38,173 bases of DNA from assembly GCA_022821735.1 (NCBI GenBank), contig JAJECZ010000372.1:1-38173 (forward strand). The letters are read 5' to 3'. The notes under the pieces are model-generated. The model saw nothing but the letters and a program-made list of their open reading frames with translations. It was not told the origin of the DNA and did no database searches. Positions 308 through 34,626 of this stretch are shown in pieces. Made by a program: the position numbers and the translations under genes. Each line of letters opens with the position of its first letter. Within the stretch, counting starts at the first letter, position 1. This DNA is from Alphaproteobacteria bacterium (lineage in GTDB: Bacteria; Pseudomonadota; Alphaproteobacteria; Bin95).

Positions 308-348
308 CCTGAAGATGAACGGACCGCCGACGATCCATCCGACCGCAG

Positions 349-853: not shown

Positions 854-1244
854 CATAGTGTGTACGTATTTATTCTGGGATATAATGTGGTTTTTGAGCG
901 GCATAAGGTTCAGATTCCCTGATCGGACGCTTCTGGAGCCGGCTTCAGCGGCCCCGGTCCGCGATCCGCAGCCGCATTGAGAAAGGACGAGAGCTTGACC
1001 CCGCCCGACGGGCCGAACCCGGAAGCCGAGGCGCTGCGCGCGCGCCTCTCCGACTTGAGCGCGGCGATCCTGCGCATCGGCGCGAGCCCCGACATTCCCG
1101 GCGTGCTGCGCGAGGCGGTCGACGGCGCCCGGGCGCTCACCGGCGCGCGCTGCGGCGTCATCGCCACCCTCGGCGAGGACGGCCGGCCGCAGGACGTCGT
1201 CGCCTCCGGGTTCGCCGGGGAGGAGGAGGCCGTCGCCGCCCGGC
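854..1244 (+). repeat. Copy 1 of a diverged ~390-bp duplication covering the promoter/leader and first ~90 codons of the GAF sensor kinase.
   Basis: It aligns by eye with 11345-11734. Shared blocks are ATAGTgTGTaCGTATT, GTTTtTGAGCGGCAT (889-904 versus 11381-11395), CCGAACCCGGAAG, GGCGCCCGGGCGCTCACCG and CAGGACGTCGTC...GCCGTCGCC. A perfect TATAAT lies at 881-886. Confidence 0.7.
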
Positions 1245-3343: not shown

Positions 3344-3557
3344 CCGGGACGCATCGGCAGCCCTTGCGAGGAGGCGGAGGTGAGCGTCAGGTCCCGCCGC
3401 GATGGAAGGGTGGCACGCCCGCGGCGCTTGCCACCATGTGCAGATCCGCCCCGAAAACCCTTGAAAGAATATCGAAATAGCCGTTGGCGATACGAACATA
3501 ATATGGAATATCGGAAATAATCGGCTCCATGTTACGAGCACTACGCGGCGGAGTTCG

Positions 3558-4049
3558 ATGAAACGCGTCCCCCGGCGGGCCGGATTGCTCAGCGGGGCGG
3601 AAGATCAGGCTCCCTGGACCGGACAGGGCCTGGATGTCCCGTTCGCCGTTCCCGCATTGCCGGGTACGGACGGCGGCCCCGGTCCGGCAACCGGCAGCGT
3701 GACATGGACAGCCGCGATGGCCGGCGTGAAGGCCGGCAGCTCCGGCCTCGGAACGGAAGTCACCGGTGACGCGGAAATGACCGCCGATCCCGGCGCGGCG
3801 TCCCTCGACCTCGCGTTCACCGATATCGCCGATACTTCCGATGTTCGCATCGACGACATCCGCCGGCAGGACGTTCCGATGCGGAGCCGGTCGTTCCAGG
3901 CCGCTGGGCTGGATGGGCGGTTCCACGGTCCGAACCGCAAAGGGGCTGGCGGCGTGTCGGAGCACAACCGGTTCGCGGGCGCGTTCTCATTGGCCCGGCA
4001 GCAGGAAGACAAGGAGTTCTACCGATGCACCCGGGAGGATCGATCGTGA
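3558..4049 (+). CDS. Hypothetical protein, first gene of a three-gene coupled set.
   Basis: 163-aa ORF with clear G/C third-position bias in this frame (for example acc gcc gat ccc ggc gcg gcg tcc ctc gac ctc). Its stop overlaps the next start as GTGA at 4046-4049. Confidence 0.55.
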   Translation: MKRVPRRAGLLSGAEDQAPWTGQGLDVPFAVPALPGTDGGPGPATGSVTWTAAMAGVKAGSSGLGTEVTGDAEMTADPGAASLDLAFTDIADTSDVRIDDIRRQDVPMRSRSFQAAGLDGRFHGPNRKGAGGVSEHNRFAGAFSLARQQEDKEFYRCTREDRS

Positions 4050-4363
4050 AGAAATTTGCCTGCGCCGCACTGACGGCGGCAATGGCGACCCTCGCCACGC
4101 CAGCCGTCTCTCATGTGCCGAAGGACTGCATGCCCAGGCTGGCCGCCATGGCCGGGGCCGTACTGGCCAGGAACGAGCACCAGGAGACCGCCGGGACCGT
4201 AATCAGGTTCAAGACCGCGGAAGACTACCAGGCTGCCTCCAAGGCCGGGATTCTCGACAACCTGACCTACCTTGCCGAGTGGACCGCCAGGCTCATGGAA
4301 CTCGACGACAGGGCCCGTGCGGCAGCCGACGCCTTCTCCCGATGCGTCGCCGGCCGAGAATGA
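4046..4363 (+). CDS. Small secreted or periplasmic protein (hypothetical).
   Basis: The GTG at 4046 lies in frame within track ORF 4025-4363. The N-terminus VKKFACAALTAAMATLATPAVSH looks like a signal peptide. Confidence 0.6.
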   Translation: MKKFACAALTAAMATLATPAVSHVPKDCMPRLAAMAGAVLARNEHQETAGTVIRFKTAEDYQAASKAGILDNLTYLAEWTARLMELDDRARAAADAFSRCVAGRE

Positions 4364-4612
4364 ATGGCCATGAGTGACGATCAGGATCCCGATGTCCTGG
4401 GTGCCGCGTTGAGGGAAACGCTGGCCGCCGCCCACAGTCCCGGGCCTTCCCAGGCGGCAGCCCAGACCCCGTTCCAGGCCTTCAAGACCGCGTTTGCCCG
4501 CACCTTCGGCATTTTCCTCGGGACGGCCAGCGGGCTCCTGACATTGGCGCTCGTCCTTTGGCTGTTGGCGGAAACGCTCGGCCTGAGCGGCCTGTTGATG
4601 GGACGGATGTGA
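4364..4612 (+). CDS. Small membrane protein (hypothetical).
   Basis: 82 aa. The ATG directly abuts the previous stop. The C-terminal half is hydrophobic (FGIFLGTASGLLTLALVLWLLAETLGL). Confidence 0.55.
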   Translation: MAMSDDQDPDVLGAALRETLAAAHSPGPSQAAAQTPFQAFKTAFARTFGIFLGTASGLLTLALVLWLLAETLGLSGLLMGRM

Positions 4613-5100
4613 AGCTGCCCGGGAGCGTGACGAGGCCGCCGCTCAAGCCCTGGAACCGTCATGACCATGGCCTGCGCCGCGCGGCAGTGGGCCGTGCGGC
4701 CCTCCATTTCCGAGCCGGGGCTGCGAACCCGGCGGCGGCGGACGCGGAGAGATTGCCGCCCGCACGAAGAGCGGTGGCTGCACGGTCCATCTCGCGCCAG
4801 GGCGCGACGGCGCCTAGCGCGTCGGGGCCAACAGCGGCGGAGCCGTCCGCTTCCCATCCCGGGTGGACATGACCGAATATCTGTATCGATAGGGGTTCCG
4901 GGGGAGGCCAGGCCGGCACACGGGGAAACCGACACAAAAGCAGGACGCTGATCCGGGAAATTCCGAAAACGAGAATGAGCGACAGGTTCACAGGCCGGTG
5001 AGCGTCAAATGCGCCGGCTGAAGGGCGAACGAGTCTTCCAGTGCACCTGACGACCAATGCTGTCCGCTGATGTAGTCTCCCGGCGTAGCGAGGTAGCGCC

Positions 5101-6312
5101 ATGACAGACCGCAAACCGGATCCCGTGGCCGGGAAGACGGTGGGAGACCGGATCAGGCAGGCCGCCGCGACAGTCGGGGCGTCGGTCGAGTCGGCGGCGG
5201 ATGCGGCAGCCACCACTGTCCCCGGCGGCGCTGCCCGCGCCGCCGGGGACCTCGCTGCCGCCCGGACCGTTGCCGCGGAAAAGGGTGGAGCCCTCGTCCG
5301 TTCAGGGGCGTCCGGCATTGCGGCCGGTATCGGCGTCGCCAATGAAACCCTGACCGGTTTCGCAGGGAATCTGGACTGGAGCGCCATCGACCCCACCCGA
5401 TACCTCTATGCCGGCACCAGAGGCGTCGGCAGGGGCCTGGAGGAGGCCCGGCTCGTGTGGGAGTCCATACCGGAACAGCTGCGCGCTCTCGGCCCGGAGG
5501 AAGTGGCGAAGCGTCTCGACGGCTTCGACTGGAGCCATGTCGTCCCCCACAGCAAGGGAGGCGGCAACGAGGCGGCAAACGGGATATTCGAGATTGCCGG
5601 ACTGAACCGGAGCCGGGGCGCGGAACAGATGACCGGGGCCGAGATCGAGGCGGCGGCCAGAGTCCTCTCGGAGGCGGCGTTTACCGCCGCGCTCGAGAAG
5701 GTGGCCTCGCGGGTATTCGTCGGCGCGGCGGTTGGCGCCGCCGTAGCCTGCGTGGTCTCGGGTCTGGAACACGGTCTCGCCTGTCAACGCGGCGAGATCA
5801 CCCGGGAGGAAATGTATCGACGCCTGGGCTGTGCGGTGGCCGCGTCCGCAGGCGCCGGCGCGGCGATATCCGGCGTCATGGCCGTCGTCGCCCTGGCGTT
5901 CCCCGCGCTCATCCCCCTGGCGGCGCCCCTGATGATGCCGCTGGCGGTCCTGGGCTTCTGCGCCGTCGGCGGCAAGGTCGTCCGCCTCGGGAAGGGGTGG
6001 TATGAACTGTATCGGGAAGTCTCCGGCGCCGGGCTTCCCGACCTGCTCCCGGTCCGGAAGCTGCCTGAATGGTATGGCCGGCGCTGCTTTTGCGGGAACC
6101 TGCCGCGAACACGATCCCCGAACGATCGGGCCATTGACCTGGCGCGCATCTCTTTGGCTGTACGGATAGGACGTATCTGTCTGGCAGCAGGTCCCACGGC
6201 CTTCAGGCCCCGCTTCATCCGCTCCGGTCAGCGGGACCGGAAACGGCCGTCGGCGATCAGCAAGGGAAAATCGGCTCGACGCAGCGCGGGTCGTCGTTGT
6301 CGGCTTTGTTGA
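5101..6312 (+). CDS. HNH (His-Me finger) motif protein with a C-terminal multi-pass membrane region.
   Basis: 403 aa. The HNH-like motif DWSHVVPHSKGGGNEAANGIFEIAGLNRSRG lies at about 5527-5616. Hydrophobic segments follow (FVGAAVGAAVACVVSGL, AGAGAAISGVMAVVALAFPALIPLAAPLMMPLAVLGFCAVGG). The Arg-rich last ~100 aa look non-native and overlap the convergent SRAP gene by 56 nt. Confidence 0.7.
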   Translation: MTDRKPDPVAGKTVGDRIRQAAATVGASVESAADAAATTVPGGAARAAGDLAAARTVAAEKGGALVRSGASGIAAGIGVANETLTGFAGNLDWSAIDPTRYLYAGTRGVGRGLEEARLVWESIPEQLRALGPEEVAKRLDGFDWSHVVPHSKGGGNEAANGIFEIAGLNRSRGAEQMTGAEIEAAARVLSEAAFTAALEKVASRVFVGAAVGAAVACVVSGLEHGLACQRGEITREEMYRRLGCAVAASAGAGAAISGVMAVVALAFPALIPLAAPLMMPLAVLGFCAVGGKVVRLGKGWYELYREVSGAGLPDLLPVRKLPEWYGRRCFCGNLPRTRSPNDRAIDLARISLAVRIGRICLAAGPTAFRPRFIRSGQRDRKRPSAISKGKSARRSAGRRCRLC

Positions 6313-6949
6313 CCAGCGTGCTCACGGGATGCGCACGCATTTCATCCGCTGGATACGGGCCGAGCGGAATGTCTTCGCCCGCGAGCCAGGGAACCCGGGC
6401 GTCCGGGGGCAGGATGACCGGCATGCGGGCGTGAACCGCCGCAACCGTCGCGTTGGCGGCGGTGGTGAGGATGGTGAAGGTCTCGACCGGCCCGCCGGGT
6501 TCCGGGCCGAAGAGCGACCCCGCCGGCGCCGGGCCCTCCGGTGCGGTCCAGCGTTCCCAGAGGCCGGCGAAGGCGAAGGGCGAGCCGTCGCGGAGGCTGA
6601 ACAGCCAGGGCTGCCTGGTCCCGCCCCGACGCTGCCATTCGTAGAAGCCGTCGGCCGGGACCAGGCAGCGCCGGCGCCGGTAGGCGGCGCGGAAGGCGGG
6701 CTTCTCCGCCACCGTCTCGGACCGCGCGTTGATGAGCCTGTTGCCGATGGCCGTGTCCCTGGCCCAGGCGGGGACCAGCCCCCAGCGCAGCATGGAGAGG
6801 CGGCGTCCGGCGTCCGCGGCGCGAACAATGGCGACATCCTGGCCGGGAGCGACATTGTAGCGGGGCTGCAGGTTGAGGGGCGCGCCGATGAGGTCCATCA
6901 GCTCGTGCAACTCCGCCCATGAGAGGCGCTGGGTGAATCTGCCGCACAT
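6257..6949 (-). CDS. yedK: SOS-response-associated peptidase (SRAP/YedK/HMCES family, abasic-site processing).
   Basis: 230 aa. It begins MCGRF (catalytic Cys2). Family blocks present are RYNVAPGQ, ADGFYEWQ and PFAFAGLWERW. Confidence 0.92.
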   Translation of the reverse strand: MCGRFTQRLSWAELHELMDLIGAPLNLQPRYNVAPGQDVAIVRAADAGRRLSMLRWGLVPAWARDTAIGNRLINARSETVAEKPAFRAAYRRRRCLVPADGFYEWQRRGGTRQPWLFSLRDGSPFAFAGLWERWTAPEGPAPAGSLFGPEPGGPVETFTILTTAANATVAAVHARMPVILPPDARVPWLAGEDIPLGPYPADEMRAHPVSTLVNKADNDDPRCVEPIFPC

Positions 6950-7101
6950 TCGGGGCCCGAATATCCGTACCGGCGGAAAGTCCTGCCCGGCGCCGCCCCG
7001 CGAACGCTGCCCCGGGCGCGCCTGAGGCAGGTTAGCATGCTTGGCCGGCGTGCGGCGGCAGGCTATATGTTGCTGGTATGTTCCATTCCGGGAGACGCAT
7101 C

Positions 7102-7356
7102 ATGCACAGGGAAGACAGCCGGCCGGCGCCGCGGGACGAGGTCCTCTTCGATATCGAGATGGCGCTCCGGAAAGGAGAGAAGCTCTGGCCGAAGCGCTAC
7201 AGGCCCGGCGACCACAACCGCTTCGGGCTCATGGCCACGGCCATCCTCGAACATCTCGAACTCTGCGGCCTGCGGTTCTTTCGCAGACCGCCCCGGCCAT
7301 GGCACAGCACGCATGGTCCCCGGGCCGGCGCCGGGACCGGGAAGGAAGGTGGATGA
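7102..7356 (+). CDS. Hypothetical small protein.
   Basis: The ATG at 7102 is preceded by GGGAGA at 7090-7095, in frame within track ORF 7078-7356. It shows good G/C third-position bias (MHREDSRPAPRDEVLFDIEMALRKGEKLWPKRYRPGDHNRFG...). Confidence 0.55.
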   Translation: MHREDSRPAPRDEVLFDIEMALRKGEKLWPKRYRPGDHNRFGLMATAILEHLELCGLRFFRRPPRPWHSTHGPRAGAGTGKEGG

Positions 7357-7417
7357 AAGACCGAATTCCGCGCCGAATCGGGTGGACTGGAACAGCCACC
7401 GGTCCGGGCAAGCGCGG

Positions 7418-8342
7418 TCATGCGGCCGGTCCCCAGCCACCGTCGAACGTCCACCGTCCCGGGGTGCGGCTGTCGCCGACGGCTGCAAGGGCGGCGGGCA
7501 TGATGAAATCCCCGACTTCGCGAATGACGGTCTGCAGGTCGGGTTCGTCGATCAGTAGCGGGTCGCGGGCAAGAAAGGATCGCCACTGCTGAAGTTTCCG
7601 AGGATCCTCCGAAAATGCGGGCGTCAGGGGCGGGGGACGTTCGCGTGGAATGGCCGTTGCACGCGTTTCGAAAGTGGCCCGGACCGCGGCGGCGAGGGTC
7701 ATGCCGTCGAACGTGAAGAGCCGTGACATCGCGAGGAGGTCGTAAAAGTCCTTCATGCGGCTGTTCGCGAGGTCGAGCGCAACGATGGCTTCGAACTTCT
7801 CCGCAGCCACGCTTTCCCGCGGGTATGCGTAGAGGGTGGGCGTCGGGTGATCGAGAAGGACGGGATAGTCGAGCTCCAGGGGCCCCGGGGGTTACGGCGT
7901 CTCCGAAGCTGACATCGATCTGGACCGGGATGATGGTGGCGCCGAGTTTGGCCGAGGTAAGGACCCGAAAGGCGCCATGGGTGCGATCCTCGCGGAACGG
8001 CGCCACGCGGATGTTCACGGCATCGAAGCGCAATCCGTCGTCCGCGACCGGCTGGGCGCAGACATCGCGAATTGCCTCCAGGAAGGACGCCGTCTCCCGG
8101 TCGGCGAGGGAAAGCAGGTCGAGATCGCGGGTCGTCCGGAACGGATCGTCGAGCCATGCGGCGTAGAGCATCGCGCCCTTGAGGACAAAGAACTTCCTGT
8201 GAGGCGAGACGCTGAGGCGAAAGAGAAACCGCTCAAGGGCGTATCGGGTGAGCATGCGCTGGAAATTGGCCTGTTGCGCCCTGGCGAGGTTTTGCAGCCG
8301 CCCGCTCACCGAAGCGGCGACATTTCCCGGTTCACGCGCCAT
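7418..8342 (-). pseudogene. abiEii: AbiEii/AbiGii-family nucleotidyltransferase toxin (type IV TA) interrupted by a frameshift.
   Basis: The N-terminal frame (track ORF 7197-8342) carries KGAMLYAAWLDDPFRTTRDLDLL and VQIDVSFGDAVTPG. The C-terminal frame (track ORF 7418-7810, extended upstream) reads LELDYPVLLDHPTPTLYAYPRESVAAEKFEAIVAL... The two frames join inside the CCCCC/GGGG/CCCC runs at 7879-7891. Confidence 0.85.
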
Positions 8343-8997
8343 CGGCGACCACCGTTTCGAGATAGGGCCGCAGAACGGACCAGATGCGGACCTGGCGGGC
8401 GTAGTCGACGATCCGCGCCGGTTTGGCCTTGCCGGACCTCACGACATTGTGGAGGCCTTCGAGCGCGACATCGAGACCGACCTGCTGCCTGAAGCGGAAG
8501 CAATCGACGACTGTCTTGGCCGGATCGAATACGGGCACGGACACGCCGTCGACGGTGTGGGCCTGCACGCCGACGGAATGGGCCCGCGGCCCGAACCGCA
8601 CGACCCTGGTCGGCGGATGCTCGATCCTGGGCTTTCGCGCTCTGGAACCTATGGCGAGCCAGACCCGGCCCGGCATCTGGAGCGTGAGTTCGTGGAACTG
8701 AAGGGCGGAGACGAGGCAGATGACTCCTTTCGGAACCAGCTTTGCAACCTGGGCGAGATCGTGCGGCGCCGTGACTTCGGCATCGGCGAGTTGGTAGAGG
8801 CCGCGAGTGACGCGGATGAGGGTCCGGTCCCTGAGCATGCGCGTGAGCGTTTCCGGATGGATCCCGGCGTTTCTGAGCTCCATGCCGCGCATGGGGCCGC
8901 AGGCCTTGAGAAGAGCGGCAGCCCGATCCTTCTGTGCTGTTGCGGATGCAGGTGTCATGTGACCGAATGTTTGTCGATAGATCGTGTTGTTCGACAT
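8332..8997 (-). CDS. abiEi: AbiEi-family antitoxin / transcriptional regulator (type IV TA).
   Basis: The C-terminal 220 aa of track ORF 8332-9093 match the family pattern (GMELRNAGIHPETLTRMLRDRTLIRVTRGLYQLA...VICLVSALQFHELT...). The stop overlaps the abiEii start by 11 nt. The start is uncertain (8997 or 8958). Confidence 0.82.
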   Translation of the reverse strand: MSNNTIYRQTFGHMTPASATAQKDRAAALLKACGPMRGMELRNAGIHPETLTRMLRDRTLIRVTRGLYQLADAEVTAPHDLAQVAKLVPKGVICLVSALQFHELTLQMPGRVWLAIGSRARKPRIEHPPTRVVRFGPRAHSVGVQAHTVDGVSVPVFDPAKTVVDCFRFRQQVGLDVALEGLHNVVRSGKAKPARIVDYARQVRIWSVLRPYLETVVADGA

Positions 8998-9209
8998 TCT
9001 GTCACATTGACGCGGGCTTGTACAGGGAATGGAGAGGCACATGGCTCGCACCGGGCCGAACCGCCAGAGTTGTGGCCGGCCGTTTGTCGTCAAGCGCTAC
9101 GCTTCGAACCTTCAGAACCCCGCTGGATCAACAGCCTGTCGCGCCGGTCGGCGTCGAAACCAGGCGCCGGACAACGCCCCGACGGGTTGTTCATTTGCAA
9201 CGACGGCGC

Positions 9210-9818
9210 TCAACAAACTCCTCCGGCTATCGCAGACAGCGCCCGGGCAGCGGCTGCATTGAGGCGCTCCAGCGGCACGCTGCCGTCCCTTATTGGCGCC
9301 AGGCCTCTCCTGCCCTGGTAGCCGTAGTCCTCCATTTCAAGATCCCAGTCGTCCTGAGACAGGAGACCGGCGGCAATGTCTTCGTCGTTCTCATTTCCGA
9401 ACCAGAGAATGAGATGCGCTTCGCTAAGGCCCAGACTGACACCGAGACCGACTATGGATTCTCCTTTCGTGTAGGCTCGGCCGAACACGCCATCCCGGAA
9501 AAGGGACACAGCGTCGAAGCCAAGGCCGTACCATGGCGCTACTTTGCTGATTGACCAAGCTTCCAGGTCCTCGCCGGTCCCGGCCTCATCGATGGCCTTT
9601 CCCCAGACCGCGTCCCAGAGGCCCTGTAGTGCCGACGCATAGTCGCAACGCACCTGATGGGCGGCGAGAACGGCCGCATGAAAGTCGGGAAGCTGCTCCC
9701 AGTCCAGCGTTTCGGGAACTTCCAGCGACTTGCTGTCGAGTATGTGGTCGACCGCCGTCCTGACGGCCGGTTCGTCGACATAGGAGGAATAGCTTTCGGG
9801 CAGGGCGAAGGACATCAT
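9210..9818 (-). CDS. Hypothetical protein, co-oriented with the upstream PD-(D/E)xK gene.
   Basis: 202 aa with strong G/C third-position bias. GGGAGA lies upstream of the ATG ATG start. No motif recognised. Confidence 0.65.
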   Translation of the reverse strand: MMSFALPESYSSYVDEPAVRTAVDHILDSKSLEVPETLDWEQLPDFHAAVLAAHQVRCDYASALQGLWDAVWGKAIDEAGTGEDLEAWSISKVAPWYGLGFDAVSLFRDGVFGRAYTKGESIVGLGVSLGLSEAHLILWFGNENDEDIAAGLLSQDDWDLEMEDYGYQGRRGLAPIRDGSVPLERLNAAAARALSAIAGGVC

Positions 9819-9863
9819 TGTCGTCTCCCAAGGATGAGGAAAAAGGATGGATGGCGCGGGCTC

Positions 9864-10778
9864 CTAGCCGGCGCGGTCCCACAGGGTGCGGCGAAACTGG
9901 CGGAACGTCTCGTCGTCATGTTGCGGTTCCAGAAACCGGTCGTAGGCGAGAAGCAGCGCGCGCCATGACTTCCAGCGCCAGTCCCTGTTCCTTGCAAGCG
10001 CCCGGTCGTCGCTTTTCCGGTAGCCCGACGATACGACGAACAGGAGCGGAGACTCCGGTTCGCCGACATGCTCGGCTCGTCTGTATTGCCTTTCGACCCT
10101 GAGCAGATGACGGCGATACGCCGGCAACTGGCCTGCAGTGACGCCATGACCGAACTTTGCCTCGATCGCTGCGGCCCGGTCGAACCCCTCCCCGTCCTGC
10201 CACTCGATGAGCAGGTCAATGCGTTGCCGCGTACCGGCTACAGGCGCTTCCGCTGTCGCCCGGGCTATTCCGAGACCACCCTCCGTTCCTTCAGGATGAC
10301 CGCCGAGCGCGGTCAGCAGGGCCCGGATCCGTCCCCCTCTCGTGACGCGGTCTTCGGAATGCAGAAAGTGGGCGATTGCCTTCGTGACCTGGGGCTCCGT
10401 CAGCCATACCCGGGTCACCCATCCAAGTGGCGCGGCGTGAAAGAAATGGTGGACATCACGGAACCCGAAGACACATGCCATCGCCTGGCGCGCCCGCCGC
10501 CAGTCGGGCAACTGCCGCGCGCGCAGCAGGCGTTCCTGGACGGCACGAAAGAGTGCGCCGGAAAGCGTTCCCGAGAACCGGCGCAACGCATCCCGCCCCG
10601 GCGGCCAGTCCGGCGGCGCGAAACCCGGTTCCCCGCGTCGCAAGGCATATGCGACGGGGCCGGCCAGCCGGTCGCCGTGCCGTTGCAGGGGGCTTGGATC
10701 GAAAGGTTCGGGAGGGCGCAACCCCAGTTGCCAATCCTCTACAGTGTTGCAGTCCAGAGTGCAGTCCTCCTGCTCCAT
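9864..10778 (-). CDS. PD-(D/E)xK nuclease-fold protein (hypothetical).
   Basis: I chose the ATG at 10778 (MEQEDCTLDC...) inside track ORF 9864-10898 because codon bias is poor upstream of it. The motif is RIDLLIEW...AAIEAKFG (D...E-x-K). Confidence 0.65.
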   Translation of the reverse strand: MEQEDCTLDCNTVEDWQLGLRPPEPFDPSPLQRHGDRLAGPVAYALRRGEPGFAPPDWPPGRDALRRFSGTLSGALFRAVQERLLRARQLPDWRRARQAMACVFGFRDVHHFFHAAPLGWVTRVWLTEPQVTKAIAHFLHSEDRVTRGGRIRALLTALGGHPEGTEGGLGIARATAEAPVAGTRQRIDLLIEWQDGEGFDRAAAIEAKFGHGVTAGQLPAYRRHLLRVERQYRRAEHVGEPESPLLFVVSSGYRKSDDRALARNRDWRWKSWRALLLAYDRFLEPQHDDETFRQFRRTLWDRAG

Positions 10779-11237
10779 CTGCCCTTCTCGCCGAGCGACG
10801 ACGACGGCGTCAAGCGCCGTCGGGTCCCCTTTTCCTGCATGCCGGTCTCCCGGTCCGTCTCTTCGCGCTCCGGGACGGCGACGGGTTCGTGGCGACACGC
10901 GTCGAGCCCGTCCGCGAGCCGGGGCCGGCGAAGCTCAGGATCCCTCTCCACGGATCCCGAGTTCCCGCCCTGCACCGCACCGGTCTCCGATGGAGCGTTG
11001 TCGTTGGCGCTCTCGCTCCGCGTTGCATAGAGACTGCCCTCGAAGCCCGAGTTGCCCGGCAGGTCGAAGATCAACGGCGAGCCGAGACACCAGCGGTGCC
11101 CGGTGTCCGTAGGGCCCGAACCCGATATCGGGCGTGCCCGTGAACGCACGGACGAACACAGGGAGCCCGTAACCGAGCTTGGCCTCGGGACGGCTCGCCG
11201 CATGGAAGCCATCCCCGCCGTGTTCGTTGCCGGCCAC
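10739..11237 (-). pseudogene. Possible frameshifted gene of unknown function.
   Basis: Coding-like third-position bias switches frames near 11106-11112. It runs from track ORF 10935-11237 (VAGNEHGGDGFHAASRPEAKLGYGLPVFVRAFTGTPDIGFGP) into track ORF 10739-11395 (TDTGHRWCLGSPLIFDLPGNSGFEGSLYATRSE...). No family recognised. Confidence 0.3.
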
Positions 11238-11344
11238 CCGATCAGCCTCTCACCCCGACAGCGCCGGGACCCCGGATCTCCGCCCCCGCTGCACCGCACG
11301 CGCAGAACAGCCGGGACTATCGGTCGTGATGATGGGACATTCTT

Positions 11345-11734
11345 GATAGTATGTGCGTATTCATTTGAAGCGATTACGTAGTTTCTGAGCGGCATTCGGG
11401 CAGGGTCGTAACCGGACGGATTCGAGAGCCGAACTCGGTGGCCTCAAGGCGGCCCCGGCTCGCGCTTCGGGCCCGCATCCGCGGCGGACTGGATGTTGGG
11501 CCTATCCGACGAGCCGAACCCGGAAGGCGAGGCGTGGCGTGAGCGCCTCTCCGGCCTGGGCGCGGCCATTTTGCGCGTCAGCACAGGCCCCGACATTTCC
11601 GCCGTGCCGCGCGAGATGGTCGACGGTGCCCGGGCGCTCACCGCGGCGTCATGGCCGCCTTCGGCAAGGACGGCCGCAGGACGTCGTCACGCCCAGCTTC
11701 ATTGCCGAAGAGGAGCCGGCCGTCGCCAGCCGGC
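11345..11734 (+). repeat. Copy 2 of the diverged ~390-bp kinase promoter/5' duplication.
   Basis: See copy 1 at 854-1244. The order of conserved blocks and the overall length are the same, with small indels. Confidence 0.7.
11493..11734 (+). pseudogene. Truncated, frameshifted 5' fragment of a paralogous GAF sensor kinase.
   Basis: Track ORF 11493-11816 starts MLGLSDEPNPEGEAWRERLSGLGAAILRVSTGPDISAVPREMVDGARALT. The intact gene has TPPDGPNPEAEALRARLSDLSAAILRIGASPDIPGVLREAVDGARALT. After that, similarity continues only in shifted frames (GVMAAFGKDG / PQDVVTPSFIAEEEPAVA) and ends near 11735. Confidence 0.7.
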
Positions 11735-11946
11735 CGAGCGTGTCCCGCCCGGACGACGAGACCCCAAACCACGCCTGCCGAATGTGCGCCATAGCCTCGT
11801 CCGTCGGCTTCTCTGACGCCAGTCCGCCCTCGCCGATATCGACGCCGTCGAGCCGGCGGCTGTGCGCGGAGCGCCGCGCCGCCGCCGACCGACATCTCCG
11901 CCTCGCGCTCGCAGATCCGGCAGACTGTGACACCGTCCCTGTCCGG

Positions 11947-12150
11947 TCAGATCCACTCGCCGGTCACGGAGAGCCGCGCCGCGCCGCTGCGGTGCTCGAC
12001 GATCCAGCCGACCGGCTCATGGTCCGTGTCCACGAGCGGACAGGCGCGGGCGTCGCCGATCCTGTCAGCCGCGGTTTCGGCCGCCGGGAGGGTCTCGAAC
12101 AGTTTCACGCGCTCAACCCGGATCTTCTGCTGCATGGGGTCTGTCTCCAT
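11947..12150 (-). CDS. Hypothetical small protein.
   Basis: 67 aa, from the ATG at 12150 within track ORF 11947-12810 (METDPMQQKIRVERVKLFETLP...SVTGEWI). G/C third-position bias is very strong. Confidence 0.55.
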   Translation of the reverse strand: METDPMQQKIRVERVKLFETLPAAETAADRIGDARACPLVDTDHEPVGWIVEHRSGAARLSVTGEWI

Positions 12151-12296
12151 ATTCTCGGTTTGGCAAAACGCCCTTGCGACAGGCCCGGCTGCCCGCAGGC
12201 AGACCTGTTCCCCGGATGGCCTGTCAACGAATGAACGAATGGCTGGCCCGCGCCCGGCACCGCCGGTGGTGCGGGGCGGCAGGCAAGGCGCGCGGG

Positions 12297-13253
12297 TCAC
12301 CCGGACTGCGGCCCGGCCGCCTCGACCCGGTCCAGCATTTCGAGGATCACGGGCTCCAGCGAGGCATCGTAGATCTCGCTGACGACCCGGAGGTAATCGG
12401 AGAATTCCTCCGGCGGCACCACGGCCCCGGGATAGTCGCGCCGGAGTTCGCCGTGCAGGCGCTTTTCGGCCACCAGCGCGGCCCGGCCCGTCTCCATTGG
12501 CACGATGCGCAGGATGCCGGCCTCCACATGGTCGGGCAGGCCCAGCTGGTGGCGCATGCGGGAGTCCGGGTCCCGGCTCATGCCGAGCTTCAGCACCGGA
12601 GAGCGGTCGGGGGCAGCGAAACGCATCAGGTAGAGCGCGCTCGGCTTGGCAGACCAGACATCGCCGCACGTCCCGCACGCGAACCGGCCGGTCTGCATGT
12701 TGACGCGCGCGATGCGCTGCGTTGCCCCGCAGCCGTCCTCGTGGACGTAGAGGCGGTAATTCGGCTCGCCGTCCGGGTCGGGTCCGACGAGCCGCCAGCC
12801 GCGGGCGCACGCCTCCTCTTCCTCACGGGCGCGGTGGCAGATCTCGCAGCGCACTCCGGTCGTGCCGTCGATGGCCCGTTTGATGAGCTCGAACTGGCGC
12901 CGGATTTCGTGGCCGCAGTCGGTCACCCGGTAGCGGCCGTAATGCGGATCGTCCGGGTCCCGGCCGAGATAGACCAGGCCGACCGACTGCGCCTCCTCCT
13001 GGCGCTTCCGGAACTGGCAGCCCTTGCAGACAGGCCGACACTTGTTGAGCGTGAAGGCGCGCGCCAGATTCAGCGTTCCACAGACCTGGCATTCGAGCGC
13101 AACGTGGTAGCGGTCGATCACGCGGGCCGCCAGGCGATAGCCTTTCTCAAGGGCTGCGCAGACCCAGGTCCCGGGCAGCGGGGCGTCATGGACCGGGTAG
13201 TCGGTATCGCCGATACGGAGCGTATCGGAAGTCAGGCGGGACATGGGTGTCAT
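12297..13253 (-). CDS. GIY-YIG-like (T5orf172-type) domain protein with three N-terminal zinc-ribbon units.
   Basis: 318 aa. CxxC pairs are CQVCG...CKGC, DCGHE...CEIC and GCG...CGTCG. The C-terminal block is SALYLMRFAAPDRSPVLKLGMSRDPDSRMRHQLG...AEKRLH. Confidence 0.78.
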   Translation of the reverse strand: MTPMSRLTSDTLRIGDTDYPVHDAPLPGTWVCAALEKGYRLAARVIDRYHVALECQVCGTLNLARAFTLNKCRPVCKGCQFRKRQEEAQSVGLVYLGRDPDDPHYGRYRVTDCGHEIRRQFELIKRAIDGTTGVRCEICHRAREEEEACARGWRLVGPDPDGEPNYRLYVHEDGCGATQRIARVNMQTGRFACGTCGDVWSAKPSALYLMRFAAPDRSPVLKLGMSRDPDSRMRHQLGLPDHVEAGILRIVPMETGRAALVAEKRLHGELRRDYPGAVVPPEEFSDYLRVVSEIYDASLEPVILEMLDRVEAAGPQSG

Positions 13254-13357
13254 CCTCCTTCGTGCGGGATCCGGCCCACCCGCGCTTGCGGCGCGCTGGG
13301 GACCTGCCCGTCATTGCTGGATGGCGGCGCGGCGCGGGTCAGCGCGGCGCCGGGGAA

Positions 13358-15884: not shown

Positions 15885-15959
15885 GGGCCCGTAGCTCAAT
15901 GGCAGAGCGACGGTCTTTTAAGCCGCAGGTTCCGAGTTCGAGTCCCGGCGGGCCCTCCA
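15885..15959 (+). tRNA. tRNA-Lys (anticodon UUU) with encoded CCA.
   Basis: Hand-folded cloverleaf. The acceptor GGGCCCG/CGGGCCC is perfect and the D arm is GCTC-AATGGCA-GAGC. The anticodon loop is CTTTTAA and the T loop is TTCGAGT. There are two A-C mismatches, A27-C43 and A52-C62. Confidence 0.75.
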
Positions 15960-16899: not shown

Positions 16900-17234
16900 T
16901 CCCGTGGCAATCCCTTGATTTCCGGCCATTATTTCCGACTACGCATTCCAATTCATATCTTAGATTGACACTATATTTTTCCGACCCATGTATCAAATCG
17001 ATCTAATATAACCTCCGGCTGGAAAACCTATTTAGTATTAAGTCCTTGATTTACTGTATTTTTCCATTATGTTTTCCAGCAACGGACATTTGCAGCGGAT
17101 GTGTCGGTTCCAAACGGCCTATTCCGGTGCTCGGCACGGAGCGGAGCGAAGCACGTGCGGGCAAGATTGTTCCGCAGGGCCGGGCGTCCACACCCCGGCC
17201 CGATCTTTCGGCCAAACGCCAAGAGGAGCAAGAC
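16900..17234 (+). promoter_or_regulatory. AT-rich upstream region and leader of the nine-gene cluster.
   Basis: This is the most AT-rich stretch in the window. TTGACA lies at 16965-16970. CCTTGATTT occurs as a direct repeat at 16913-16921 and 17044-17052. A GC hairpin GGGCCGGG/CCCGGCCC lies at 17177-17184 and 17194-17201. The Shine-Dalgarno sequence AAGAGGAG is at 17221-17228. Confidence 0.4.
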
Positions 17235-28159: not shown

Positions 28160-29455
28160 TTATGCAGCTTCTACCATTTCATCAAATTGCTGTCTGCCAA
28201 TTCCACCCTTATTTACCAGTACGGTTTGAATCACCCTCTCTGATGCATGAAAAAAGCGTGCCGCCGCCGATATATCCTCTTCAGAAGGCACCTCTGTATT
28301 GATGTAAGATAACAGGTCCTCGTAAGGACAAAGAAGACTTTGCGCAAATGCTCGCTGAAATTTCTGCCGACCTGTCTTCGTCCTCGTTATAGGTCCTAAT
28401 GGATCGTTACCCGACCATATTGCATCACCCAAAGTGCGACACAACTCAAATCGACGCCCTTGGGCCCAGCGGGAACTCAACGCTACAACATTTCTATTCC
28501 CGTCTCCTTCCCGTAGGCGAAGACCATAATGAAGTCCGCCCGGTTCAGCATCCCTGCTGCGAAAGTGATCTTTAGAGACATTTAGCAATTCTGCCAAACG
28601 CGTATTTCTCAATGGTCCGTTGTCGGCACCCAATCCCCTACGTACTGCTGTAGCTGCCTCCTCGGCAACTTCCCAAATTGGTTTAGTGTATCGCTGTTTA
28701 ATGTCCCCCGCTGCGGCAATTGCGTCATGCAGCTCGCAAACTACTTTTGACTTCTTTGCGACCTTTATCTCTTCTGCCAGCGTGTCAGCAGATGTTTCTC
28801 CCTGACTGGCCACAATTGCCTCCTCAACTCCCTCATTCCCATAGCTTTCCAAATAACCCAGCAGTAGTTGGACTAGTTCACTCGGCGCGCGGTCGATATC
28901 GTATCCCAACTTAGCCTCTATTCGGCGCCATGTAGCCGCATTATCATCTACGCGCTCTTCTTTCAACGCCAAGAATTGCGCGTTCAACGCTACCTTGTCG
29001 TCCGAAGCCGCATCCACAGCCTTACTCAAAAACCGATCAACTGATGCTTCAAACTGATCTGCGCCTACAAAAACAAGAGCATCCTTAGTAAATCTCAGGG
29101 CAAAATTCATGCTGAGCGGATCACTACGGCAGGCGAGCCCGACTCGAGGGTCTTCACCCCAAATGCGAAGTCTTGGCCAAATGTAACCTCCGCCAATCGC
29201 CGAAAGCTCGTGGGCCAGACGCCAAGTCGGATCGACGTTGTCGGATACTATTGGTTCCCAACGTAGGCGCCACCAGTTATCCGTGATCCAAAACGCCAAT
29301 TGAACGGGCGGCGCTTGAAGATAGTCGTCAGCTTGATTTCCTCCATCTCGAACAAGTTCAGTGAAACAGACTTCACCTGATCGCAACGCTATATGCTGCG
29401 GCACTTCCCACGAGGACTCCGGTTCAGTCCGGATATCGAACTGGAAATCGGTCAT
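28160..29455 (-). CDS. Protein with a C-terminal ImmA/IrrE (COG2856)-like domain lacking the HEXXH motif.
   Basis: 431 aa. The C-terminal half fits the family template (AVRRGLGADNGPLRNTRLAELL...GRRFELCRTLGDAIW...QRAFAQSLLCPYEDLL), but CRTLGD sits where HELGH is expected. G+C is very low (26/60 at 28201-28260). Confidence 0.72.
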   Translation of the reverse strand: MTDFQFDIRTEPESSWEVPQHIALRSGEVCFTELVRDGGNQADDYLQAPPVQLAFWITDNWWRLRWEPIVSDNVDPTWRLAHELSAIGGGYIWPRLRIWGEDPRVGLACRSDPLSMNFALRFTKDALVFVGADQFEASVDRFLSKAVDAASDDKVALNAQFLALKEERVDDNAATWRRIEAKLGYDIDRAPSELVQLLLGYLESYGNEGVEEAIVASQGETSADTLAEEIKVAKKSKVVCELHDAIAAAGDIKQRYTKPIWEVAEEAATAVRRGLGADNGPLRNTRLAELLNVSKDHFRSRDAEPGGLHYGLRLREGDGNRNVVALSSRWAQGRRFELCRTLGDAIWSGNDPLGPITRTKTGRQKFQRAFAQSLLCPYEDLLSYINTEVPSEEDISAAARFFHASERVIQTVLVNKGGIGRQQFDEMVEAA

Positions 29456-29958
29456 CGCCGGAAACCGTAAAGCGTTTTACATTGTTGAACTGCTTGATGT
29501 GCTAGTTGGTTTCCGTGTACTTGGACCCAATCTCTGAATCGCCTGTATACCAGCACCGCTATCGGCTCGGTGCGTCGCACGGGGTAGCCATGATACTCTG
29601 TCTGTACAATGTTTGTAATCCTCCCCTCGTAAATCCAGCCGTTGTTTGCAACGGCCCAGATGATGCCATTTTCGCCGACTAGGCCAGCCTGTAAACCCCG
29701 GTGAATCATTGGGCGAATTAGAGGGATGTGAGCGGGTTGAAAATTGGCATCCCGGTCGCAGAGGGTGGCATCTCCTCTAGTACCCAAGAAAGGTTCGAGG
29801 CCATAGAGGTGGGGATTTTGCTTATGCTTAGAATATGGTTGGTAGATTATGTTTTGTTGCAATTGCGCGATGTAGGCCGGAGGAGGATTGGCCAACAGTC
29901 GGCGCTTCTCGTTGTTTGAGTGCCGAGCAGGTAGGTTGGATCTCGTTGCCGGTCGCAT
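29452..29958 (-). CDS. Hypothetical protein, family unassigned.
   Basis: 168 aa with an ATGA overlap onto the downstream gene. A conserved-looking core reads GIIWAVANNGWIYEGRITNIVQTEYHGYPV. G+C is low. Confidence 0.65.
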   Translation of the reverse strand: MRPATRSNLPARHSNNEKRRLLANPPPAYIAQLQQNIIYQPYSKHKQNPHLYGLEPFLGTRGDATLCDRDANFQPAHIPLIRPMIHRGLQAGLVGENGIIWAVANNGWIYEGRITNIVQTEYHGYPVRRTEPIAVLVYRRFRDWVQVHGNQLAHQAVQQCKTLYGFRR

Positions 29959-30320: not shown

Positions 30321-30596
30321 TCAGCCGCCGACGGCATTCCTGAGCGACCTGCCCGGCTTGAAGACGGGCACGGTCGAAGCCGCCACAGGCACATTTTCTC
30401 CCGTGCGGGGGTTGCGGGCGATGCGCGCCGGTCGCGCCCTGGTTCCGAAGCTGCCGAATCCGAGGCTTCGCACGTCCTCGCCATTTGCCAGGGCTTCGCC
30501 GATCACCTCGAACACGCCCTCCACCGCATCCTTCGCAGCCGCTTTCGTCATTCCCGTCCGGTCCGCGAGGCGCTCACCCAGTTCCGACTTGTTCAT
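30321..30596 (-). CDS. hup: HU/IHF-family nucleoid-associated DNA-binding protein.
   Basis: 91 aa from the ATG at 30596 within track ORF 30321-31025: MNKSELGERLADRTGMTKAAAKDAVEGVFEVIGEALANGEDVRSLGFGSFGTRARPARIARNPRTGENVPVAASTVPVFKPGRSLRNAV. Confidence 0.92.
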   Translation of the reverse strand: MNKSELGERLADRTGMTKAAAKDAVEGVFEVIGEALANGEDVRSLGFGSFGTRARPARIARNPRTGENVPVAASTVPVFKPGRSLRNAVGG

Positions 30597-30763
30597 CCCT
30601 GCACTCCCATGCTTGTCATCACCGGCCCGCTGTCCGCCTGAGTAGTATGTTGGGCCATTCTGCGCGATATGCCTCGCCTTGGGGTCGTCGCGCTTCCGCG
30701 CCATGAGCGGCACGTCCGGGAACGGCGTGTTACGGTCGCGGCGGCGTGTTGTCGGGGGGTGCG

Positions 30764-31189
30764 ATGCTGGACGACAGGGAACTCCTAGAGAAGCTTGCCA
30801 AGGTGGAAGCCCTGTTCCGGCGGGCCGCCAGTCCGGGGGAGCAGGCTGCTGCAGGAGCTGCGATGGACCGGCTGCGCGACCGGCTCGGCGCCTCCGACCG
30901 GGATGGCGGTCCGGAAACCGAACTCCAGTTCTCGCTGCCGGACGCCTGGTCGGTCCGGCTGTTCGTCGCCGTCTGCCGCAAACACGGCCTGCGCCCGTTC
31001 CGCTATGCGCGGCAACGGCGGACAACGGTGATGGTGCGCGCCCGCGAGCGACATTTCGATCGTGTGGTGTGGGCCGAGTTCAGCCACCTTCAAACCGAGC
31101 TCGAACTCTACTTCGAGGACGTTACCGACCATCTGATTACCCGCGCCATGGGCTCGGACGGCGACGACAGCAACATCGGGCAGCGGTAG
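30764..31189 (+). CDS. Hypothetical protein; the N-terminal helical segment is reminiscent of DUF2786-type proteins.
   Basis: The ATG at 30764 lies within track ORF 30746-31189 (LLEKLAKVEALFRRAASPGEQAAAGAAMDRLRDRL...). It is divergent from the HU gene. Confidence 0.6.
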   Translation: MLDDRELLEKLAKVEALFRRAASPGEQAAAGAAMDRLRDRLGASDRDGGPETELQFSLPDAWSVRLFVAVCRKHGLRPFRYARQRRTTVMVRARERHFDRVVWAEFSHLQTELELYFEDVTDHLITRAMGSDGDDSNIGQR

Positions 31190-32131: not shown

Positions 32132-33058
32132 TTAACAACGGCCCGACGGCGCCTCCCTTGCGTGCCGGTGCCTCAATACCGGCCCAAGCTTGGCATAGTG
32201 TCCGGCGTTGCTGTACTCGTCGTACCAGGTTCCGAGGTGAAGCTGGAGATCCGTCACGAAGTAATGCAAGAGCCGTGCGGAACTGACGATTGGCTCAAGG
32301 CCTTCTTCCTGCAGCGTTGTCCAACTCATCGTCTTCGCTGCGTCCTCGGAGGCCAGGTTGACCTCCGCGGCGACGCCGAGTTCCACACCATTTCCGCCCA
32401 TTCTTGCCGGAATACAAAGCGTCGCTGGCTCGTCGTCGTCCAAAATCAGTACCGATGCATTATTCGGTGCGATGCCGTTCGCCCGTAAATCGGCTTCCAA
32501 CTGCTTCACCTTGCAATCACCTTGTCCCAAGGCAATCAGGAAGTTGTAGCAACGATTGTTCCACTCCCTGCCGGTGATCGGTCTCGTCATCTCGGCCAGG
32601 GTCGCCTCATCTGACATCGTGCCGAACCGAAACCTGTTCGCGATCAACCGCCCTTTCTGCAGAGTCTCCATATCTTCTACGATCCGGCGGTAGCTTGTCA
32701 GAACATTGCCATGATCCCACCACGAAGCCTTGACCTCGCCGACGGCCGCAACCCATTCGACCCTCACCAGCTCGGTTTCCCCGTCATCTGCCTTGTGCAT
32801 GGTCGCGGCAGGAACATCCTTGACGACGATCAAATCCATCTGTCCTGACTTCATCCCATCCGCTCGAACCACGTGTCCGTGTGTCACCCGGTACAGCCCT
32901 CCGACGAGACTCCCGACAAGCTTCCTGACCGCCTGCTCCGGCCCATCCCCTCTCGCGCGGATGTTATTCCGTCCTCCCGTGGCCCTCGACCTGTTGCGAC
33001 TTACGAACAGCTCCTCCGCAATCGTCGCATAGAGTTCGTCCGGACTGTATGTATCCAT
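32132..33058 (-). CDS. PD-(D/E)xK nuclease-fold protein (resembles the DUF6602-type).
   Basis: 308 aa. The motif is SGQMDLIVV...AVGEVKAS (D...E-x-K). G+C is lower than in its neighbours. Confidence 0.7.
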   Translation of the reverse strand: MDTYSPDELYATIAEELFVSRNRSRATGGRNNIRARGDGPEQAVRKLVGSLVGGLYRVTHGHVVRADGMKSGQMDLIVVKDVPAATMHKADDGETELVRVEWVAAVGEVKASWWDHGNVLTSYRRIVEDMETLQKGRLIANRFRFGTMSDEATLAEMTRPITGREWNNRCYNFLIALGQGDCKVKQLEADLRANGIAPNNASVLILDDDEPATLCIPARMGGNGVELGVAAEVNLASEDAAKTMSWTTLQEEGLEPIVSSARLLHYFVTDLQLHLGTWYDEYSNAGHYAKLGPVLRHRHAREAPSGRC

Positions 33059-33457
33059 TTGCTCTTCTTTCCTGCTTCATCCACCGGGGCAACTTCATCC
33101 GGACGCCGTCATCGCCATCCGCATGGATCCATGAAATGATTCCGGCCGTTATCTCCGGTATCCGCGATGGCGCCCACGGCTTGCCCGGCAACGGAACGCG
33201 CCCCGGTTCAGCCCTCGACAGGGAGGCCGCTTGCCGGACCCCCCATTGAATCCGGCCGCCAAACTCCCCGCAAGACAGCTGCTGGTGTGTGCTTCATGAT
33301 CACCTCGCTATTGCGCCCCATGGCCGCGCAACGCGGACAGACGGTGCAGCGATATTTGCGACAGCATGGTAAGCGATGGAGTCGACGCCCCTCCCGACGG
33401 CATTGCGATGTGCCAAGTTGGCGGTGTCGGAAAGGCCAAGAAAGGACAGGGGCGTCC

Positions 33458-33946
33458 ATGGAACAGGTACGATCCGGCGAAAGGATACGGGGTTTTCTCG
33501 AACCGCATGACGGCTCGCCCAACGTGTTCTGCCATCTCAGCGTCGTCGAGGCGTCCGGGCGGGACACGCTGCCCCAGGGGGCCCTTGTGACCTGCGAGAC
33601 CGTGCAGGGCGACAGAGGATCCCAGGTTTCGTGGATCCTCGCGGTCGAAACGCCCGTCGAACCCCGCCTAGCGGCGCGCGGCCGTTCTCGCGACACGCAT
33701 TGCGCGGGTCCGCAGTCCGGTGCCCCGCCGACCTCCGGCCTGGAGTTGCCGGGCGCGGTCAAGTTCTACGATCCGGCGCGGGGTTTCGGCTTCGTCGTGC
33801 CGGACCGCGGCGGGCCCGAGATATTCGTCCATGCAAACGTGCCGTTGCGCTCCGGCATGGGAGACCTACTGCCCGGCCAGCGCGTCTTCGTCCGCGCCGA
33901 AAGCGTGCCGCGCGGGCTCCAGGCGACGGAGATAGAGCCGCTCTGA
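33458..33946 (+). CDS. Cold-shock-domain protein with tandem CSDs; the first CSD is split across two frames.
   Basis: The C-terminal CSD is intact (VKFYDPARGFGFVVPDRGGPEIFVHANV...). The first CSD has its strand-1/2 part WNRYDPAKGYG in track ORF 33366-33590. The remainder, FLEPHDGSPNVFCHLSVVEASG, is in this frame. Confidence 0.75.
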   Translation: MEQVRSGERIRGFLEPHDGSPNVFCHLSVVEASGRDTLPQGALVTCETVQGDRGSQVSWILAVETPVEPRLAARGRSRDTHCAGPQSGAPPTSGLELPGAVKFYDPARGFGFVVPDRGGPEIFVHANVPLRSGMGDLLPGQRVFVRAESVPRGLQATEIEPL

Positions 33947-34536: not shown

Positions 34537-34626
34537 TGGCGGTGGGGGTGGGATTCGAACCCACGGTACGCTTGCGCGTACAACGGTTTTCGAGACCGCC
34601 CCGTTCAACCGCTCCGGCACCCCACC
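34537..34626 (-). tRNA. tRNA-Ser (anticodon CGA), long variable arm, encoded CCA.
   Basis: The reverse complement reads GGTGGGGTGCCGGAGCGGTTGAACGGGGCGGTCTCGAAAACCGTTGTACGCGCAAGCGTACCGTGGGTTCGAATCCCACCCCCACCGCCA. The acceptor GGTGGGG/CCCCACC is perfect, the anticodon loop is CTCGAAA and the T loop is TTCGAAT. Confidence 0.92.

Follow-up and report, generated by a model that had tools for sequence, protein, structure and literature searches.

What is the function of two overlapping genes of low G+C content on an alphaproteobacterial contig, one of which appears to encode a metallopeptidase-like protein that lacks its metal site? The contig, JAJECZ010000372.1 of Alphaproteobacteria bacterium assembly GCA_022821735.1, was analyzed over positions 1 to 38173, and this whole stretch of 38,173 nucleotides (nt) is referred to below as the window. 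The upstream gene (29452-29958, reverse strand) encodes a small, basic protein of 168 amino acids (aa; isoelectric point [pI] 10.2, net charge +11), and the downstream gene (28160-29455, reverse strand) encodes its acidic partner of 431 aa (pI 5.0, net charge -16). The stop and start codons of the two open reading frames (ORFs) overlap as ATGA at 29452-29455 (TCAT on the forward strand), which implies translational coupling of the two genes. Both ORFs and their overlap had been proposed in an initial annotation of the window and were found at the same positions when rechecked on the sequence.

Pairing of the two genes

Patterns derived from the partner were used to scan 185,579 species genomes and retrieved at least 297 loci, all belonging to one branch of the family. 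When co-occurrence was scored on the best 80 of these 297 partner loci, the small gene was present in 72; four of the eight misses were contig ends, and without these the count is 72 of 76. With two exceptions, the small gene of these 72 loci immediately preceded the partner gene in the same orientation, and in most of the loci its stop codon lay approximately -10 to +60 nt from the start of the partner profile match. Gene ends that overlap or almost touch were the rule in most related loci. In the reverse direction, the partner was encoded downstream in 56 of 57 metagenome loci that were found by the small gene and had room downstream. The same two-gene architecture was present in a deep second branch. 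The pair is therefore near-obligate and inherited as a unit, and the counts in both directions bear out the earlier proposal that the two genes belong together. No third conserved gene was found around the sampled loci; the 127 nearest neighbors were spread over 130 Pfam families, none with more than four occurrences. Likewise, no conserved upstream operator or promoter was found among the closest loci.

An ImmA/IrrE fold with a replaced zinc site

The 431-aa protein consists of two domains. Its N-terminal domain (residues 1 to 255; 28691-29455, reverse strand) is of mixed beta/alpha structure and has a net charge of -17, while residues 256 to 431 (28163-28690, reverse strand) form a domain of the ImmA/IrrE (M78) fold, identified by Foldseek and hhalign, from which the zinc site is missing. 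An AlphaFold2 model built on 113 homologues had a mean predicted local distance difference test score (pLDDT) of 89.7 and a predicted template modeling score (pTM) of 0.89 and was confident throughout the M78-like domain. Only the C-terminal half of this model matched structures in the PDB; the Foldseek matches were a Mycobacterium tuberculosis transcriptional regulator (6cz6/6cyy), CapP (7t5t), IrrE (3dti), and PprI (8slm), with probabilities of 0.84 to 1.0. In agreement with this, hhalign aligned the C-terminal domain over 145 columns with a canonical M78 profile made from nine domains of genomes related to that of the window (probability 96.7%, E 3.3e-10). The assignment of the C-terminal half to the COG2856 metallopeptidase template in the initial annotation was thus supported at the level of the fold. 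At the level of single-sequence searches, Pfam returned a weak match to Peptidase_M78 (PF06114) over residues 308 to 409 (E 0.0064), which at 16.7 bits is below the cut-off of 22 bits, and similarly weak matches were obtained for 41 of 113 large-protein relatives (best E, 2.3e-5). The protein matched nothing in PADLOC (at E <= 1) or NCBIfam and had one chance-level match in PHROGs (E 0.04).

The two blocks that carry the zinc site in canonical M78 peptidases are both altered. RRFELCRTLGD (28424-28456, reverse strand) stands in place of the canonical RFtLaHELGH, and RQKFQRAFAQSLLCP (28325-28369, reverse strand) stands in place of the canonical E-x-E-A-N-x-F-A-x-x-L-L-M-P. In the hhalign alignment, the first zinc histidine corresponds to R340, the catalytic glutamate to T341, and the second zinc histidine to D344; the third zinc ligand, the glutamate of the E-A-N-x-F-A block, corresponds to Q367, with K365 nearby. 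The blocks GRRFELCRTLGDAIW and QRAFAQSLLCP were found as initially described, and realignment did not recover HEXXH, so that the reported absence of both zinc histidines and the catalytic glutamate was upheld. As read from these alignments, the C-terminal domain is an M78 fold with no metal ligand and no catalytic base, and the large-protein family is predicted to be unable to bind zinc in the canonical manner. With all three zinc-ligand positions and the catalytic glutamate replaced in an M78 fold, the term pseudo-protease is appropriate.

The N-terminal 250 or so residues yielded nothing significant in Pfam, NCBIfam, PADLOC, PHROGs, PDB sequences, or Foldseek searches of the PDB, and a Pfam scan of this domain across relatives gave scattered chance matches in single members only. 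A relation to the SUKH/SMI1_KNR4 superfamily was considered and rejected at the profile level for SMI1_KNR4 only (hhalign probability 0.24%). A degenerate helix-turn-helix (HTH) ahead of the M78 domain was also rejected, as the stretch in question corresponds in the alignment to the helices with which canonical M78 domains begin and weak HTH matches were present in just 4 of 113 relatives.

Conservation of the large protein

One alternative is that the M78-like domain is decaying and that the 431-aa gene is a pseudogene or is becoming one. The loss of HEXXH and the subthreshold Pfam score are the only observations in favor of this. At least 392 large-protein homologues were found, and among 113 close relatives R335, D344, Q364, Q367, F370, Q372, C376, and P377 were invariant, while R334, F336, E337, and R340 were conserved in at least 90%. 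A second, deep branch, reached via a distant relative of the small protein, comprises sequences from Alkalilimnicola, Desulfurivibrio, Verrucomicrobiota, Lentisphaerota, and Skermanella. In an alignment of 42 sequences that spans both branches at 26 to 52% identity to the window's protein, R335, F336, R340, Q364, Q367, R368, F370, L375, C376, and P377 remained invariant, D344 was conserved in at least 90%, and no member contained HEXXH. Counting both alignments, the replacement of HEXXH is fixed in all 113 and all 42 sequences. C376 is the only cysteine invariant in both branches; C339 is conserved in the close family only. The N-terminal domain has invariant positions of its own in the same 42 sequences (W61, W62, R63, E67, W78, H82, G88, G90, W93, P94, E167, R177, E180, G206, and E212).

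Selection on the nucleotide level was consistent with this pattern. Between the large gene and its four closest genomic relatives, the proportion of nonsynonymous differences (pN) was 0.14 to 0.25 and that of synonymous differences (pS) was saturated at 0.64 to 0.96; the ratio of nonsynonymous to synonymous rates (dN/dS) was approximately 0.07 to 0.16 where computable, with the N- and C-terminal domains equally constrained. Both genes of the pair are under strong purifying selection. Because the substitutions are fixed over two deep branches and dN/dS is this low, the loss of the zinc site is not decay. Hundreds of proteins share the replacement residues with little or no variation, and the structural model is confident through the whole domain; the pseudogene explanation is effectively refuted by conservation. 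Of the earlier description of the domain as degenerate, the loss of the zinc site stands, while the sense of decay does not: RRFxxxRxxGD...RQKFQRAFAQxLLCP is a fixed, strongly conserved superfamily signature.

The small protein

Homologues of the 168-aa protein numbered 152 at 90% clustering, all of them annotated as hypothetical. Searched with a profile, 1.84 billion cluster representatives (50% identity clusters) yielded 436 relatives at E <= 1e-3, including a second tier of proteins of approximately 145 aa. Across 60 diverse members, H45, K46, C67, and W101 were invariant, and Y39, P49, D68, G92, E111, and Y122-H-G-Y-P126 were conserved in at least 90%. Translation and alignments place the superfamily-invariant H45, K46, and C67, along with P49 and D68 (each conserved in at least 90%), in the block HKQNPHLYGLEPFLGTRGDATLCD (29755-29826, reverse strand), and the YHGYP motif (29581-29595, reverse strand) lies in the third beta-strand of the AlphaFold2 model. 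C160 is conserved in the close family. The invariant His, Lys, and Cys, with the conserved Asp and Glu, suggest an active site or a metal site.

The AlphaFold2 model of the small protein (pLDDT, 86.9; pTM, 0.82) has a low-confidence N-terminal tail, after which come four helices, a sheet of three strands, and two further helices. The tail (mean pLDDT, 54 to 63) contains a conserved N-x-K-R-R-L motif in the alignments. Foldseek found no match for this model, the best E values being 0.87 against the PDB and 0.25 against BFVD. The protein also matched nothing in Pfam, NCBIfam, PADLOC, or PHROGs; a Pfam scan of the 60 members was also empty. Profile searches of PDB sequences with the small- and large-protein alignments gave nothing significant. 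Neither Pfam, including the scan of the 60 members, nor Foldseek detected an HTH, a ribbon-helix-helix (RHH), or another known DNA-binding fold. The modeled fold is thus new, with no annotated relative in the libraries searched. These library, PDB-sequence, and Foldseek searches agree with the initial impression that neither this protein nor the N-terminal 250 residues of its partner resemble anything that can be named.

Several known folds were considered for the small protein and rejected, namely, an RNase T1/Sa-like YHEY arrangement, a HicA-like double-stranded-RNA-binding domain, GIY-YIG, His-Me finger, papain-like Cys-His, and PD-(D/E)xK. In each case the key residues were unconserved or in a misfitting order, and there was no Foldseek match. 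In one protein of 574 aa (P0246), the small-protein domain is located at the C terminus of a TPR-repeat protein and has no methionine at the usual start; this may be a true fusion or a miscalled start.

Mobility and genomic setting

The base composition of the pair is distinct from that of its surroundings. The G+C content is 50.4% for the 431-aa gene and 51.7% for the 168-aa gene, compared with 64.6% for the whole window, and G+C at third codon positions is 45% and 53%, respectively, compared with 63 to 78% in seven other window genes, four of them from the adjacent gene cluster. At the scale of genes, the two are the lowest in G+C among those compared. A count of exactly 26 G+C in the 60 nt at 28201-28260 was reproduced; the accompanying statement that this is far below everything else in the window was not, as intergenic 60-nt windows at approximately 16950-17080 and 16151 drop to 16 to 18 of 60. 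These lowest values fall in a noncoding stretch immediately after a tRNA-Lys gene, where the accessory island starts. The accessory stretch that holds the pair is bounded by this tRNA-Lys (15885-15959) and a tRNA-Ser (34537-34626), and the pair is convergent with a neighboring defense-like cluster of SMC-like, ParB-like, SNF2, radical-SAM, and GHKL genes. No convincing flanking repeats were found around the pair as marks of insertion, and a promoter and terminator scan gave a result at chance level.

A similar pattern was observed across the family. The 297 partner loci span Alpha-, Beta-, and Gammaproteobacteria, Acidobacteriota, Latescibacterota, and Eremiobacterota, and the reach of the family overall covers Pseudomonadota, Acidobacteriota, Latescibacterota, Eremiobacterota, Verrucomicrobiota, and others. 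Within the window's own taxonomic family, a partner homologue was present in just 4 of 37 genomes; the other three copies scored approximately 223 to 247 bits, compared with 699 for the window's copy, and are therefore not orthologues of it. Homologues were found on five plasmids, and the copies on Sphingomonas plasmid p01 adjoin IS66 and IS30 elements. In 51 of 62 loci the module had a lower G+C content than the flanking DNA, with a mean difference of 4.7 points (Wilcoxon p = 3.6e-9), and in the clade nearest to the window's copy the module has a G+C content of approximately 50 to 57% in hosts of 58 to 70%. Low G+C content, patchiness among relatives, and carriage on plasmids point to horizontal transfer, in line with the separate acquisition that had been suggested for the window's pair.

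Among the 127 nearest neighbors were four SNF2/HmaA-like helicases and three type I methyltransferases. The second-branch pair of locus L166 (5001-6326), like that of L167, is located between hsdS and hsdR of a type I restriction-modification operon, and the L166 pair is accompanied by a 371-aa AAA_15/SMC_N ATPase and small genes of unknown function. Another second-branch pair was observed in locus L085 (CP184336.1, 1-12435), where the partner protein is named for Alkalilimnicola ehrlichii. Its neighbors are an MqsA-like/HTH gene, an IS21-type transposase pair, a group II intron reverse transcriptase, a DUF4258/HTH pair, and a truncated Beta-CASP/RMMBL gene, making this region dense in mobile elements and toxin-antitoxin modules.

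Proposed function of the module

The reading that we favor, tentatively and at a little less than an even chance, is that the pair is an autonomous mobile toxin-antitoxin or abortive-infection-like module in which the small protein is the effector and the pseudo-M78 protein is the neutralizer and possibly also a sensor. The toxin/regulator or small defense pair suggested in the initial annotation is thereby retained as the best hypothesis available to us, and it rests on genomic behavior. The module is a compact two-gene operon, is inherited as a unit, and has spread horizontally in a patchy manner, as is generically required of type II toxin-antitoxin systems. The opposite charges of the two proteins (+11 for the small protein and -16 for its partner), the near-obligate pairing with no third gene, the mobility, and some defense settings also support this reading, as do the swappable upstream gene and the decay pattern described in the next section. 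A precedent is RosmerTA, which is compared with the pair below. Unit inheritance, mobility, the M78 fold, the fixed loss of its zinc site, and purifying selection are shown by the data, whereas toxicity, direct binding, a nucleic acid target, and any trigger are steps that we infer.

In the proposed mechanism, the small and very basic protein, with its invariant His-Lys and its Cys-Asp, Glu, and Tyr-His residues, would be the effector, probably an enzyme or a metal-dependent protein that acts on nucleic acid. The large acidic protein would bind the small protein and keep it inactive, its former protease cleft having become a surface for binding only. This cleft may hold the effector, for example, by the conserved N-x-K-R-R-L tail at its N terminus. 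Alternatively, the cleft may hold a trigger, for which single-stranded DNA (ssDNA) and phage proteins are candidates; the analogy is with IrrE, PprI, and CapP, which signals of this kind activate. The effector would then be freed when the partner is released or degraded.

Variant and decayed loci and the assignment of roles

Four loci from related gammaproteobacterial (Pseudomonadales-type) metagenome-assembled genomes (MAGs) encode a partner paralogue behind an unrelated 121-aa HEPN-like gene, which itself follows a 300-aa gene of unknown function (L020, L053, L060, and L078). The HEPN match of the 121-aa gene is weak, nearly full length, and below the cut-off (PF05168, E 8.4e-4), and a relation of its product to the 168-aa family was rejected (hhalign probability 0.2%). 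HEPN is a domain type of RNase toxins in other toxin-antitoxin and abortive-infection systems. The four loci fit a constant partner with exchangeable small effectors. One of them, L020 (OZ244571.1, Candidatus Azotimanducaceae MAG, 1-13299), contains three partner paralogues within 13 kb and a partner fragment at 8979-10016. The genes upstream differ for each paralogue, being the HEPN-like 121-aa gene behind the 300-aa gene, the 300-aa gene alone, and a 168-aa family gene; several copies are frameshifted, which gives the locus the appearance of a local module array or graveyard.

Disrupted pairs were counted without frameshifts in long-read MAGs, which are possible sequencing errors. Four loci (L018, L042, L004, and L026) have an intact partner next to a small gene that is interrupted, truncated, displaced, or replaced. 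The reverse was clear only in L022, where an IS66-family transposase (6758-8236, E 1.9e-38) lies inside the partner gene and splits it after approximately residue 252 while the small gene is whole. This 4-to-1 asymmetry weakly favors the small protein as the harmful component.

The same loci bear on the possibility that the roles are reversed, with the 431-aa protein as an effector whose N-terminal domain is catalytic and the small protein as a DNA-binding, metal-stabilized regulator or antitoxin. The small gene comes first, in the place that the antitoxin gene takes in most type II toxin-antitoxin operons, and its product is very basic; H45, C67, and H123, together with C160 in the close family, could make a structural zinc site and not an active site. 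R63, E67, H82, E167, R177, E180, and E212 of the N-terminal domain are invariant at 26 to 52% identity, and in L022 the small gene has outlived the disruption of its partner. Against a reversal, loci with an intact partner and a lost or broken small gene outnumber those of the converse kind (four cases compared with one or two), the small protein has no detected HTH, RHH, or other known DNA-binding fold, and the closest loci have no conserved operator-like sequence upstream. Furthermore, the partner can pair with a HEPN-like small protein instead. On balance, we consider reversed roles unlikely.

Several observations weigh against the toxin-antitoxin reading with the small protein as effector. 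The L022 locus argues that the small protein is not lethal without a full-length partner, although the N-terminal domain alone may suffice to neutralize it. The HEPN-like variant probably arose only once, in related genomes. For an antitoxin, the large protein shows unusually strong conservation, and the invariant Arg, Glu, and His residues of its N-terminal domain could, judging from the alignment, form a catalytic site. Neither protein was matched by PADLOC models. Any enrichment of defense genes among the nearest neighbors appears modest (about 7 of 127), with many loci situated amid metabolic genes, and no match was found in IMG/VR or in 50,697 phage records. Of the two settings that the initial annotation had suggested checking, a prophage origin was consequently not supported, and the association with defense islands appears modest and variable.

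A more specific possibility, which we regard as doubtful, is that the pair represents a new and widespread abortive-infection or defense family in which a permanently metal-free protease scaffold would sense ssDNA or a phage protein by binding only and gate a small nucleic acid-targeting enzyme of a fold unseen in the PDB, and in which this scaffold could be recoupled to HEPN-like effectors.

Relation to known systems

In RosmerTA (RmrT/RmrA), which is found in accessory DNA, a toxin without an assigned function is paired with an antitoxin of the Zn-peptidase type (Millman et al. 2022 preprint, 10.1101/2022.05.11.491447). The pair resembles it as a two-gene module in accessory DNA, composed of a presumed toxin of unknown function and an ImmA/IrrE-type (M78) partner. 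However, RmrA reportedly retains an intact HEXXH motif and has an XRE HTH, whereas the M78 domain of the pair is without a zinc site in every member, has no HTH, and is located behind an N-terminal domain of approximately 250 aa of unknown function. Furthermore, neither protein of the pair matches any PADLOC model at E <= 1, a collection that presumably includes Rosmer models.

The resemblance to CapP/CapH, IrrE(PprI)/DdrO, and ImmA/ImmR lies in the same C-terminal fold (7t5t, 3dti, and 8slm; hhalign, 96.7%), which makes the sensing of a signal plausible. In those systems, active zinc proteases cleave an adjacent XRE repressor and thereby control a neighboring operon, whereas the pair has no canonical zinc site, no repressor partner, and no constant neighboring operon. 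Indeed, Pfam found no HTH in the coupled upstream gene in any of 60 superfamily members, so that the XRE substrate of an M78 peptidase is absent. The large-protein family thus shares the M78 fold and lacks the hallmarks of M78 peptidases, namely, HEXXH, the third ligand, a Pfam score above threshold, and an XRE partner.

These comparisons also bear on whether the pair could be a noncatalytic, nonkilling sensor and regulator derived from the logic of CapH/CapP, ImmR/ImmA, or DdrO/IrrE and controlling genes or a cellular process. The M78 fold is shared with CapP, IrrE, PprI, and the M. tuberculosis protein 6cz6/6cyy, all of which are regulators, and in the window the pair adjoins a defense-like cluster. 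However, the module contains no XRE or other HTH repressor, its neighboring genes are unconserved and so offer no constant regulated target, no conserved operator lies upstream, and the window's pair is convergent, not divergent, with the cluster. We judge such a regulatory role to be decidedly unlikely. What probability remains after these alternatives and the favored toxin-antitoxin reading is left for functions that we did not foresee.

The best-ranked Foldseek match, the M. tuberculosis regulator 6cz6/6cyy/6cyj (probability 0.98 to 0.99), which we take to be PrpR (Rv1129c), is a case of nonproteolytic use of an M78-like fold. PrpR carries an XRE HTH at its N terminus and is a cofactor-binding protein. 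In contrast, the 431-aa protein begins with a different domain, and its sole cysteine invariant over both branches is C376. A final likeness is to HEPN toxin-antitoxin modules, as the HEPN-like 121-aa gene occupies the position of the small gene before a partner paralogue in the four variant loci. However, the 121-aa gene, with its weak HEPN match, is unrelated to the 168-aa family, and the partner is no nucleotidyltransferase. Literature full text was searched for the motifs of the pair and for M78 or COG2856 toxin-antitoxin and defense systems, and no description of this family was found.

Other genes of the island

Three further genes near the pair were examined. A 234-aa ORF at 30321-31025 (reverse strand) matches Bac_DNA_binding (HU type; E 3e-28) over residues 144 to 232, and its first 140 or so residues are rich in Pro, Arg, and Ala; it is either an overcalled TTG start or an HU protein with a long basic extension. 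The island gene at 32132-33058 (reverse strand) encodes a DUF6602 protein (E 2.4e-11). The product of the gene at 33167-33946 (forward strand) has 259 aa, with a cold-shock domain (CSD, E 1e-16) at the C terminus and a 190-aa N terminus without assignment.

Significance of the family

Both genes are annotated as encoding hypothetical proteins in two RefSeq plasmid records and wherever else they are named, while a few partner homologues have received the name ImmA/IrrE by automatic transfer. If the favored toxin-antitoxin or abortive-infection reading is true, the pair would represent a large, wholly unannotated family of conflict modules, with at least 297 loci in one branch and 436 small-protein representatives, and would add an effector fold without a solved relative. 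Definition of the family would also improve the annotation of defense and accessory islands. Under the favored reading, the pair would moreover be a clean case of the conversion of a protease to a pseudoenzyme, in which the ImmA/IrrE principle of cleaving to signal would have become one of binding to signal.

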